Notes under the pieces: generated by a model | Databases searched by the model: none | Seen by the model: the letters and a program-made list of their open reading frames with translations, nothing else | What the model was told of the DNA's origin: nothing | IMG/VR virus record: IMGVR_UViG_3300033067_001335 | Coordinates: 1-46,229 of that record | Direction: 5' to 3' (one strand) | Source: a virus | Taxonomy: Duplodnaviria; Caudoviricetes | Length of the DNA: 46,229 nucleotides | Part shown: piece by piece, positions 16,394 to 20,100 of the stretch | Layout: each line of letters begins with the position of its first letter | Position numbering within the stretch: the first letter of the stretch is position 1 | Made by a program: the position numbers and the translations under genes

Positions 16394-16644
16394 TCACCCC
16401 AATCTCGCCTGAATCCGTCCAATCGCTACAATGGCAATCAGACCCGTATTGCTTGGGGTTTATTGAGGCTATCTCAAAAGGTCTTATCGAGGCATGGCAG
16501 GAAGAACACGCTGGAAAATCTATCTCCGTCGATCCATCGTTCGGCGCGCCCGCGATACCGTCAGCATTGACAAACAACGCCACTTTGCCGAGCAATGGCT
16601 CGAAGAGAACCATATCCCAGCCGATCAAGTCGATTGGTTTGTAG
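16390..16644 (+). CDS. Small ORF overlapping the serine recombinase start
   Basis: ATGA coupling to upstream gene; 151-nt out-of-frame overlap with the recombinase. Confidence 0.45.
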   Translation: MITPISPESVQSLQWQSDPYCLGFIEAISKGLIEAWQEEHAGKSISVDPSFGAPAIPSALTNNATLPSNGSKRTISQPIKSIGL

Positions 16645-18077
16645 ACGCGCAGGGCCATCGCTCGGCGCGCTGGGAGACCACGCGCCCTGAGTGGATGCGC
16701 GTTAAGGCCGAGCTGCTGCTGCCCTCAACCGCAGGCCTGTGGTGCTTTGAGATGGACCGCACGCACCGCAATGTGCGCGCCACTGCCGAGCTGGTTGAGA
16801 CCGCACAGAACACCGGCCTGCGCCTTGTCTCATACAAAGACAACATCGACACCGCCAATGGTCTCAACTCAGATGACTTGGTGGTGATCATGCTGAAGGC
16901 GGCATTGGCCCAGCGCGAGAGCAGCAAGGCCTCCGAGCGCATGACCGATGCCATCCATGAGCGCGTGCGAGATCTCGGCCCGTGGGGCACACCGCCGTTT
17001 GGCGCGATCTACACCGGCGAGGGCAAGACCATGCGCCAGATCGTTAATCCGCCCCACGATGCAACGATGCGCGAGATGTGCCGTATCTACGCCGCCGGCG
17101 CATCGTATGGCGAGACTGGTGATGAGATGAACCGGCTTGGCTTGCTCAACCTCAGTCGCGGCAAGGCCATGGTGCCGTGGAATCGTGAGACGGTGCGCAG
17201 CGCCCTGCACAACGTCCTGAGCCTCAACGGGTGGCGCACACCGCTGAAGTTCAACAAGGATGCCAAGATCATGCTTGGGGAAGGGCAGGGGAGTGCAATC
17301 GAGAAATATGCTGAGTCGGTGAAGGCCGAGCGATCGAGCAAGTTTGATGCGGTTGTTGATGACGCGCTCGCCAGCGCCGTCGTCGAGCGCCGCGCTCGTG
17401 CCCAGCGTGGCCAGCGCCCAACCATCTACGCGATGCTCACGCCCATTCTGTGGATGACCGGACACAACCGCCCCATGTATGCCAACAAGGGCCATCTCTA
17501 CAAGACCCATGGCAGGCCAGTTCGCCAGATCGAGGTCACATTCGTCGATGAGATGTTAGTCGCTAAGTTATCTGATCTGCAATTCCCGATAGAGATGCGC
17601 GAGATGATTAAACGCAACGTGTCCAGCGCCACCAACAATCAAGACACTGAAGCGGCAGGCAAGGAGATGCAGCGGTTGATGCGTAAGGCCGCCCGCCTGC
17701 GCGAGCTGTATGCAGATGGGACCATTGAGGATCGAAATGACTTTGACCGGCAGTATGAAGCGACCAAGACCCTGATCCGCGATGCCGAGAAGCGCATGAG
17801 CGTGTCGCCTGAGGTGGATGGCATCATGCAGCATCTCACCATGATGGCCGACACATTGATGCGTGTGGCGCCGCTCAGGCGCAAACAGGCCATTCAGAAT
17901 CTGTTCAGTAGGGTAGAAATAAATGAAGCGGGTGAAATCACCCGCCTCTTTATGCGCGATTGGGCCCGGCAAGCCTTTGTTGCTATAGCCACGTATGGGC
18001 TACAAAATGCGCTGGACAGGAGTCCAGCACCAACCGTAGCCTCATTGGATTGGTTGATGCAGAGGATGGCGGCGTAG
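16494..18077 (+). CDS. Large serine recombinase (integrase)
   Basis: IYLRRS catalytic motif, S.DKQ, G.RSA...RP, DRTHRN, ES...SER, G..PFG, C-terminal coiled coil. Confidence 0.9.
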   Translation: MAGRTRWKIYLRRSIVRRARDTVSIDKQRHFAEQWLEENHIPADQVDWFVDAQGHRSARWETTRPEWMRVKAELLLPSTAGLWCFEMDRTHRNVRATAELVETAQNTGLRLVSYKDNIDTANGLNSDDLVVIMLKAALAQRESSKASERMTDAIHERVRDLGPWGTPPFGAIYTGEGKTMRQIVNPPHDATMREMCRIYAAGASYGETGDEMNRLGLLNLSRGKAMVPWNRETVRSALHNVLSLNGWRTPLKFNKDAKIMLGEGQGSAIEKYAESVKAERSSKFDAVVDDALASAVVERRARAQRGQRPTIYAMLTPILWMTGHNRPMYANKGHLYKTHGRPVRQIEVTFVDEMLVAKLSDLQFPIEMREMIKRNVSSATNNQDTEAAGKEMQRLMRKAARLRELYADGTIEDRNDFDRQYEATKTLIRDAEKRMSVSPEVDGIMQHLTMMADTLMRVAPLRRKQAIQNLFSRVEINEAGEITRLFMRDWARQAFVAIATYGLQNALDRSPAPTVASLDWLMQRMAA

Positions 18078-18175
18078 GGTGGGGTAGCGATTAGGACTTT
18101 TGCAATGAAGATTAACAACAGGGCGTAATATCAATACAAAGCAACGTGGTTTATTCTGCTACGTGCTTTAAAACT

Positions 18176-18397
18176 ATGGCAATTCTAGCACCCAGTTGGG
18201 AATCAGAAATAACCTGTCCCGTCTGTACCCATGTGCAAGTCGAATTAATTCCACCGGATACATGAATGGCGTTTTATCGATGTGCCAGTTGTGGCACCGT
18301 CCTGCGCCCGCTACCGGGCGATTGTTGCGTATTTTGCTCGTATGGCTCAATCGATTGTGATGGGCAACGTAATTCGACCAGTGAAAAGGGAGATTGA
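18176..18397 (+). CDS. GDCCVxC-domain selenoprotein (73 aa; TGA 18263-18265 read as Sec)
   Basis: MAILAPSWESEITCPVCTHVQVELIPPDT-U-MAFYRCASCGTVLRPLPGDCCVFCSYGSIDC...; not in the ORF track because TGA splits it. Confidence 0.85.
18279..18301 (+). promoter_or_regulatory. Putative bacterial SECIS element
   Basis: gat-GTGCCA-GTTG-TGGCAC-c-gtc hairpin; apical loop starts with G, after a 22-nt spacer from the in-frame TGA. Confidence 0.7.
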
Positions 18398-18425
18398 TAA
18401 CAGTGCCAATACAAATGTTGAGTTA

Positions 18426-18453
18426 TTTACTATCTAAACAAAGTTGATATAAT
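18426..18453 (+). promoter_or_regulatory. Promoter of the tyrosine recombinase
   Basis: TTTACT-16 bp-TATAAT with TGn extended -10. Confidence 0.65.
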
Positions 18454-18469
18454 GCACCTTATAGTAACT
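18442..18469. other. dif/lox-like tyrosine recombinase core site
   Basis: AGTTGATATAA-TGCACC-TTATAGTAACT: 11-6-11, arms 9/11 inverted match, 16 nt before the recombinase ATG. Confidence 0.75.
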
Positions 18470-18485
18470 TATTGCAATTCTGACT

Positions 18486-19406
18486 ATGAGTAAAGCTATT
18501 TCAATCCGACAGAACACCGTAAATCCTGCTGCGGCGTATCTCGCGAGCCTTCGAAGCGAGGTTGGCCGCCGATCAATGCGATCGCGACTTAGCGCAGTTG
18601 CGCGGGCGATGAATGCATCAAGCATTCGCACGATGGATTGGGCAACGCTCAATGCTGCGAACGTGCAGGGCATCATCAACAAGATCGACGGCGCGCCAGC
18701 CACGATTAACACTACCCTTGCGGCGTTGCGCGGCGTGGCCAAGAGCGCGTGGCGACTGGGGGTTATCTCGCGTGAGACGCTGGATCAGATCAATGATGTG
18801 AAAGGCGCGCGTGGATCTCGGCTGGCCGCTGGGCGGGATGTGCCAATCACTGAGCGCGCTGCGCTCTTGGCGGTGTGCAAAGCGGGCGAGCGCGCCATTG
18901 ATCGGCGCGACGCTGCCATGTTGGCTATGGTGATGGCCACTGGCATGCGGCGCGAGGAGCTCGTTACGCTGTCCGTGGGAGATCTCACCTATGAGGATGA
19001 TCAGATCACGGTGAGAGTGCAGGGCAAAGGCAATAAAGAACGTGAGGTTTATGTGAGTGGTCCAGCCATGCGTGCAATTGAGATTTGGTTTGATTCACGC
19101 GGTCGCGGTGCCGGCGCTCTATTTTGCTATGTGACTCGAGGCAATCGCGTGGTGACCGATCACCAGATCAGCACCACGGCAGCAAGCAAGCGCCTTGATC
19201 GGCGCGCCGAGGCCGCTGGCATCAAGGATTTGGGTTGGCATGACTTCCGGCGCACTTACGCCGGCGACATGCTCGACAGTGGCGCCGATATTTCGACCAC
19301 GGCGGCGTTGATGGGCCATAGCGATGTGCGCACCACTCAGCGCTATGATCGACGGCCCAAGGCTACACGCAAGGCTGCTGCAGCACGGGTTAAGGTGCCG
19401 TTTTAG
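18486..19406 (+). CDS. Tyrosine recombinase (Xer/Cre-like, no arm-binding domain)
   Basis: TGMRREEL, KGNKER, HDFRR, LMGH, TTQRY catalytic set; 306 aa. Confidence 0.95.
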   Translation: MSKAISIRQNTVNPAAAYLASLRSEVGRRSMRSRLSAVARAMNASSIRTMDWATLNAANVQGIINKIDGAPATINTTLAALRGVAKSAWRLGVISRETLDQINDVKGARGSRLAAGRDVPITERAALLAVCKAGERAIDRRDAAMLAMVMATGMRREELVTLSVGDLTYEDDQITVRVQGKGNKEREVYVSGPAMRAIEIWFDSRGRGAGALFCYVTRGNRVVTDHQISTTAASKRLDRRAEAAGIKDLGWHDFRRTYAGDMLDSGADISTTAALMGHSDVRTTQRYDRRPKATRKAAAARVKVPF

Positions 19407-19410
19407 GAAC

Positions 19411-19626
19411 ATGACCAATTACCCGCTCCCCACTCCTCACATGTTTGCGGTGCACCGCAGAGTTGTGATCCTTACCCAATTCCGTTGGCAAGTTGCGATC
19501 GAGACAACTCAGGCCATGACCCAGCTTCAGCGCCTCATCGGAGATGCGGTACTGCCTGCGCTGCAGCGATTTGCCGATGCGCTGGGATCAATGGACCTAG
19601 AGGGTCTCGATGGCGAACAGGAGTAG
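19411..19626 (+). CDS. Hypothetical protein
   Basis: ATG 4 nt after the recombinase stop; converges on the late arm. Confidence 0.55.
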   Translation: MTNYPLPTPHMFAVHRRVVILTQFRWQVAIETTQAMTQLQRLIGDAVLPALQRFADALGSMDLEGLDGEQE

Positions 19627-19632
19627 CCCCAA

Positions 19633-20100
19633 TCACCCCGGCGCATTCACCAGCGCCTCGAGCTCAGCATCCACTGCATTGGCCGCCTGATAGTGAAGAT
19701 TGCCAACGATGCCGCGCTTCTGGGTGATTGACTGTACCTGTGCCTCAAGCCCGCGCATATATTGCTCAAGGAAACTCGTCACAATCCGCTTCGCATTCTG
19801 CCCGCCGGCGTCGATGATGGCTTGCATGGCGGCATCATCCATATCATCGATCTGGTCACGCAGTTCCACAAGTGTAGCCGTCGCCTTGTCGTATCCGGCA
19901 TTGGCCACATCGATGGTCTGCTGTGCGCTTGTGCGCATGACGCCCGCCTCTTCGGCAAACCCAGCCGCATCAAGTGCATCGGCGGCCTCTAGCCTGCGCT
20001 GAAACGGCGCGAGCGCAGCTGCGCGCTCGGCATCGCTGTCATTGATTTGCCCTTGCGCCAAGGCCTGCGCACCGGCGCGTAGTGATTGAACTGTGATCAT
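19633..20100 (-). CDS. Hypothetical helical protein (end of tail operon)
   Basis: AGGAG RBS before ATG 20100 (MITVQSLR...). Confidence 0.8.
   Translation of the reverse strand: MITVQSLRAGAQALAQGQINDSDAERAAALAPFQRRLEAADALDAAGFAEEAGVMRTSAQQTIDVANAGYDKATATLVELRDQIDDMDDAAMQAIIDAGGQNAKRIVTSFLEQYMRGLEAQVQSITQKRGIVGNLHYQAANAVDAELEALVNAPG

Follow-up and report, generated by a model that had tools for sequence, protein, structure and literature searches.

The stretch of DNA analysed here (the window) is an entire linear virus record of 46,229 bases, 59% complete according to CheckV, which encodes terminases, a capsid, a tape measure, tail genes and both a serine and a tyrosine recombinase (PHROGs); the carrier is a siphovirus-like tailed phage with two recombinases. 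The large serine recombinase and the XerC/D-like tyrosine recombinase stand in tandem on one strand (16494-19406), and the gap between them holds a frame with a single internal TGA at codon 30 and a terminal TGA (18395-18397) followed by TAA (Table 1). The first-pass annotation had read this gap as a region of lower GC hiding a GDCCVxC selenoprotein with an in-frame TGA, and our analysis agrees on both counts. GC is 0.42 in the gap and 0.49 in the gene (GC3 0.41), compared with about 0.58 for the phage, and the read-through frame matches NF041374, the NCBIfam profile 'GDCCVxC domain-containing (seleno)protein', at 83.9 bits (cut-off 40) over profile positions 1-56 of 58, across the TGA. The part after the TGA scores 57.6 bits by itself and covers only profile positions 23-56. 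Aligned with 48 of the 57 homologs (49 rows), the window protein keeps all invariant columns of CPxC...C/U-x5-CxxC-x8-GDCCVxC but deviates at two near-invariant ones, M25 and P62, and in the tree it sits on a long branch. No Shine-Dalgarno motif was found before the ATG of the gene and no plus-strand promoter upstream of it passed the promoter scan; a MerR-type long-spacer promoter seen there by eye has no operator palindrome, is unsupported by the scan and was rejected.

Table 1. Coordinates of the features discussed, in the window unless a contig handle is given.
Feature	Position	Strand	Remarks
Large serine recombinase (integrase-like), upstream of the gene	16494..18077	+	PF00239, phrog_95
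Low-GC variable slot holding the gene	18085..18410		Relatives' contigs match up to its edges and pass there into other sequence
GDCCVxC / GOS_B family gene	18176..18397	+	73 codons; TCPxC-x12-U-x5-CxxC-x8-GDCCVFC; 8 Cys and a predicted Sec
In-frame TGA, codon 30, predicted Sec	18263..18265	+	Cys in homologs, TGA in bacterial relatives
Bacterial SECIS-type hairpin	18282..18297	+	6-bp stem, GUUG loop; overlaps the codons of the second CxxC
11-6-11 imperfect inverted repeat	18442..18469		9/11 arm positions complementary; overlaps the -10 box predicted for the tyrosine recombinase gene
XerC/D-like tyrosine recombinase, downstream of the gene	18486..19406	+	Nearest named homologs Anaerolineae/Chloroflexi
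Membrane-protein loci near Anaerolineae TGA forms	L113:1339-1908(-), L075:220-771(+), L249:2089-2670(+), L192:1414-2259(-), L229:1355-1906(-)		

The locus was recovered in more than one dataset. A 6,033-nt contig of run X1, from which the window itself may derive, spans 16400-20000 in one piece, and in run X2, which belongs to another study (an anaerobic digester by its record), 18229-18454 is covered with no differing letter, the TGA and hairpin being identical; no RNA run was found among the listed holders of the window sequence. Contigs from two other runs (X5 record 7, X6 record 8), which are short, of low depth and 80% alike, match the window as far as 18084 and from 18411 onwards and at these edges pass into different sequence, and the gene therefore likely occupies an exchangeable slot. 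Nothing was found that links the GDCCVxC gene with control of recombination, and an invertible segment with a second recombinase half-site at 18123-18134 was unsupported (4 non-self matches vs 2.3 expected). The gene has the appearance of exchangeable cargo, not of a switch acting on recombination. The inverted repeat downstream of the slot has what we take to be a Xer/dif-like architecture, and in a 92%-alike relative no differing letters are listed for 18449-18484; it is likely the binding or recombination site of the tyrosine recombinase and belongs with the promoter of that gene. No phage relatives reaching the recombinase region were found in IMG/VR, where the close relatives L159 and L160 end in the tape-measure gene. 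The contig has a single tRNA gene, tRNA-Leu(GAG) at 570-645, which is a possible marker of an attachment target.

Recurrence of the TGA codon and of the downstream hairpin

The family corresponds to the 'Hypothetical protein GOS_B' of Table 1 in PMC13188914, which was predicted to be a selenoprotein family in 2008 (Zhang & Gladyshev) from 11 Sec and 125 Cys sequences, with no functional evidence in the GOS_B passages of that paper (PMC2398784). The window gene resembles GOS_B/NF041374 in its full-length profile match, the position of U, the spacing to CxxC and GDCCVFC, a similar CDG ending at the C-terminus and a SECIS-like hairpin, and in the supplementary dataset of the 2008 study the published selenoproteins carry U at the same spacing as the window TGA (PMC2398784). 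It differs in lying within a phage, between recombinases and without MerR/MerT-type neighbours, whereas the published members are marine metagenome reads.

Position 30 pairs Cys with TGA in the family. Cys occupies it in 57/57 protein homologs, a set of called proteins in which TGA forms therefore cannot occur, and in all 36 parsed Cys loci of IMG/VR viruses (TGY; 37 loci, one unparsed), while a pattern requiring TGA recovered at least 120 loci in species genomes (estimate about 150) and at least 117 metagenome loci (estimate about 240). The pairing on which the earlier proposal hinged is thus present, and the possibility that the TGA was unique to this sequence failed, the same codon recurring in over 230 loci. 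By record label, the 120 listed genome loci comprise 87 from Chloroflexota, 3 from Thermomicrobiota, 16 from Pseudomonadota, 1 from Myxococcota and 13 unassigned, and some of these labels look wrong: the genes of L061, L074 and L071, labelled Klebsiella or Ramlibacter, are near-identical to Roseiflexaceae or Caldilineaceae copies. The frame stays open past the TGA in 119/120 of the listed genome loci; a Rhodospirillaceae TGA-form copy (L046:4001-4075) has TAA three codons past the TGA and is a broken copy. Among 301 genomes sampled from the likely host phylum, 19 family matches exceeded the cut-off, 15 of them stop-free, 4 with TGA and 0 with TAA or TAG, and the pattern search returned 0 viral contigs with TAA/TAG in place of the codon-30 TGA. 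In one genome a TGA form is followed in tandem array by a second family match that has no stop, the two being separated by about 80 bases (L180/L184; G304:C21:23550-23962).

The hairpin downstream of the TGA was also part of the first-pass proposal, as GTGCCA-GTTG-TGGCAC lying 22 nt downstream and fitting the bacterial SECIS model, and this description stands. Its six pairs are all Watson-Crick, the stem starts 16 nt after the UGA, the loop GUUG occupies 18288-18291 at 22 nt from the UGA, and the computed energy is -11.1 kcal/mol, within the published limits (loop of 3-9 nt with G within the first two nucleotides, stem of 4-16 bp, spacing of 16-37 nt, MFE <= -7.5), which we scored with our own script of the model in the Fig. 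2 legend of PMC13188914, not with bSECISearch itself. The 4-nt loop with G first, the 6-bp upper stem, the 22-nt spacing and the energy of about -11 kcal/mol resemble the bacterial in-ORF SECIS read by SelB as given in that legend (PMC13188914); unlike it, the window hairpin is phage-borne, predicted and dependent on host trans factors. No Rfam family was found on the window. The hairpin's 3' arm has a 9-nt complement just past the stop codon (18400-18408), probably by chance, which could compete with the hairpin.

The same script passed 124/198 TGA forms, 70 of them at exactly 22 nt. Of the Cys forms it passed 10/40, with no case at 22 nt, and of the synonymous resamples 13%. Phylum-matched Cys forms passed in 4/12 cases, at other spacings, and the loose SECIS model is therefore weak when taken alone. 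A central hairpin pair probability above 0.5 was found in 61/119 distinct TGA forms vs 0/28 Cys forms, and it was at most 0.05 in 12/12 Cys loci of the phylum sample; for the window, the chance of 6/6 Watson-Crick pairs under synonymous resampling is 0.005. The wobble base of Gly40 tracks the first base of codon 37 when that base is G or A (G-C 56, A-T 31 and G-T 7 of 104), and the Ser38 codon is AGT in 84/103 cases. Covariation amounted to 58 double changes vs 23.7 shuffled (0/500), above all slid registers, with 78.7% of cells pairing, in a set of 50 hand-picked TGA rows (33 from the main clade, 17 others) whose relatedness inflates such counts. Folding energy was set aside as proof of the hairpin, the z-scores being -2.6 for a 51-nt window and, in two longer windows, a non-significant -0.6 and -0.3. 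The support for the predicted hairpin comes from its conservation, not from folding energy.

Viral copies of the gene and its apparent status as cargo

Only one further TGA-form contig was found in IMG/VR, the 52.6-kb L038, which carries terminase, portal and tape measure genes. Its GDCCVxC gene is 50% GC in a locus of 64% GC and lies on the opposite strand to both neighbours, and its hairpin (7 bp, GUUG, 22 nt) is in the same register as that of the window. The two proteins are 48% identical and the two phages have one gene family in common; independent capture by the two was not upheld, since a shared origin is not rejected (AU test p 0.30, 45 of 118 TGA rows). Viral Cys-form loci have a structural or integrase neighbour in 8 of the 17 tested (of 37), one of them beside a serine integrase, which suggests repeated retention of the family by phages. 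No family match occurs among 50,697 GenBank phage records, and none of the bacterial or metagenome TGA loci showed a clear further phage context in a Pfam search of 102 selected neighbour ORFs (E 1e-12), a partial and insensitive survey. Two metagenome TGA-form loci, L226 and L230, adjoin an N6/N4 DNA methylase gene and may be further mobile or phage copies.

The first-pass annotation had remarked that phage selenoprotein genes are rarely reported, in keeping with our finding no named phage-encoded selenoprotein in the open-licence PMC and bioRxiv literature, where the term 'GDCCVxC' was not found either. The same literature does contain phage tRNA-Sec genes, in Basilisk-like phages (PMC6145125) and huge wastewater phages (PMC10747093), which likewise show phages touching the Sec system; those reports concern a tRNA with no named selenoprotein, whereas the window contig has a selenoprotein gene and no tRNA-Sec was found on it. 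The family and its Sec site were already known, and it is the carriage by a phage that is new relative to the literature searched.

A genuine Sec-type gene need not serve the phage, and the window copy might be a passive passenger, acquired from a host chromosome at the recombinase locus and silent or drifting in the phage. The lack of a clear ribosome-binding site or promoter, the long branch, the other DNA that relatives appear to carry in the slot, the missing GenBank matches and the single other IMG/VR contig all fit such a passenger, and inheritance alone could account for a perfect hairpin. Against this, all eight Cys and the frame are intact, as is the fully paired hairpin, which synonymous resampling rarely yields, the sequence is identical in a second study, and the family recurs beside phage structural or integrase genes. 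We consider a passenger unlikely, if still a serious alternative to an accessory gene retained by the phage.

Host selenocysteine machinery and the reading of UGA

Searches of the contig (59% complete) found neither SelB nor tRNA-Sec, in accordance with the earlier statement that host Sec machinery would be needed. For the tyrosine recombinase 3 of 120 homolog rows name an organism, and for a portal-like protein 1 of 120; these named top homologs are from Anaerolineae/Chloroflexi, and capsid homologs occur in 3/401 Anaerolineae-class genomes (58, 48 and 36%; there was no control class), all three of which encode SelB. The phage host is thus likely a member of the Anaerolineae (Chloroflexota). 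SelB was present in 42/50 TGA-form genomes tested (of about 117); the eight in which it is missing are MAGs of which the completeness is not given. SelA occurs in 227/301 genomes of the likely host phylum, a baseline that includes four genomes marked unpublished (G077, G209, G212, G305), and co-occurrence with Sec machinery is therefore not discriminating within the Chloroflexota, with the further point that SelB and SelA are different genes. Alphaproteobacterial TGA holders encode SelB in 5/7 cases vs 26/200 in the background (p 0.001), the lineages not being independent.

The TGA could instead be a real stop, whether through a nonsense mutation, through faulty assembly or because the gene is split and an ATG restart yields a 43-residue C-terminal protein. 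An ATG does follow the TGA directly, the 43-residue part exceeds the family cut-off by itself, and TGA is an ordinary stop on this contig, where it ends 24/60 correctly stranded ORFs (from a list of 61). An ATG in that place is nevertheless found in only 4/197 distinct TGA forms, and TGA-ATG coupling was rejected as a conserved design. The recurrence of the same TGA with a continued frame in over 230 loci, the covarying hairpin, the unchanged codon in a second study and the published Sec site largely refute a stop, which we regard as very improbable. Some bacteria and phages have recoded genetic codes or tRNAs that read UGA, but a reading of this UGA as Trp, Gly or Cys is hardly credible where TGA ends many phage genes normally (for which reason genome-wide TGA recoding was rejected), where Leu(GAG) is the sole tRNA, and where the site pairs with Cys, is followed by a SECIS-type hairpin and is held mostly by genomes encoding SelB.

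Selenocysteine coding is the reading we retain. Because of the Cys/Sec pairing, the identity with the GOS_B site, the covarying hairpin and the presence of SelB in most TGA-form genomes tested, the UGA is very probably a Sec codon by design. SelB-GTP-Sec-tRNA of the host would bind the GUUG loop and insert Sec at codon 30, giving a 73-residue protein that is predicted to bind thiophilic metals; without selenium or Sec machinery, translation would end after 29 residues.

Metal-related neighbours and the proposed role

Metal genes (MerR, MerT-like, MerB, ArsR, P1B-ATPase, Acr3-like and ArsP-like) lie within 3 kb of 40/140 distinct TGA loci (at least 1.5 kb each), a count lowered from 42 by dropping a 'MerA-like' neighbour cluster that has no C-terminal Cys pair. 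MerR is directly upstream in 19 of the 140, and in 100/140 no metal gene was found within 3 kb among the labelled clusters, many contigs being short. Near Anaerolineae TGA forms, in the same metal-related clusters, five loci hold a second likely selenoprotein, a membrane-protein gene with a TGA stop after GFG/GFS that continues as TGPILxGL (Table 1). The family is also found on plasmids (352 records), and the three hits inspected show merR-merT-merP-GDCCVxC on Pseudomonas pRA2, ArsR-merTP-oxidoreductase-GDCCVxC on a Hymenobacter plasmid and MerR-hypothetical-GDCCVxC; the description of Tn5563 in PMC4785139 lists merRTP and no GDCCVxC gene. The Cys-form genes of these mer-type modules (pRA2, Hymenobacter plasmid) share with the window gene both the family and a location on mobile DNA. 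The window gene differs from them in its TGA and hairpin and in standing alone between recombinases, mer neighbours being found only in relatives, and the plasmid matches are annotated as whole genes whose codon 30 was not read out. The neighbours of the relatives (MerR, MerT/P, MerB and P1B ATPases) point to a possible role in mercury or copper handling.

In a structure model (pLDDT 78, from the 49-row alignment with Cys read at the site) the protein forms a beta-hairpin bearing CxxC knuckles, together with a short helix. Its zinc-ribbon matches are weak (Foldseek E 0.077 at best; VIA Z up to 3.2, with rmsd 2.4 across 43 residues), and it is therefore only by inference that we describe a scaffold held by structural metal in which a free Sec/Cys would serve as ligand for Hg/Cu-type ions. 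The eight Cys (two CxxC knuckles, CCxxC and the last Cys) would likely coordinate structural metal within a small fold of zinc-ribbon type. The Sec or Cys at position 30 would then act as the reactive ligand, accepting Hg/Cu-type ions or passing them on; the place of the family at the end of mer-type operons suggests such a part.

A Chloroflexota host is the likely source of the GDCCVxC (GOS_B) gene, which in the phage would most likely act as an accessory 'moron' expressed in the lysogen. That the UGA encodes Sec and that the phage has in this gene an active accessory function related to metals, as proposed, is probably correct. The wider proposition that phages repeatedly recruit the gene as a lysogen fitness factor, that the Sec form and a functional SECIS are retained by phages whose hosts use Sec, and that host selenium switches on a selenoprotein trapping Hg/Cu is speculative and, at present, doubtful.

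The case is unusually well anchored, since both the family and its Sec position are published, the hairpin covaries and the Sec form occurs in two different phages. Idle cargo is nevertheless a possible status for the gene. At 73 residues its product is a test object for the function of GOS_B, together with a mercury/copper hypothesis. If the reading is true, selenoprotein genes can be carried by phages from one Sec-using bacterium to another, and such genes are missed by gene callers.
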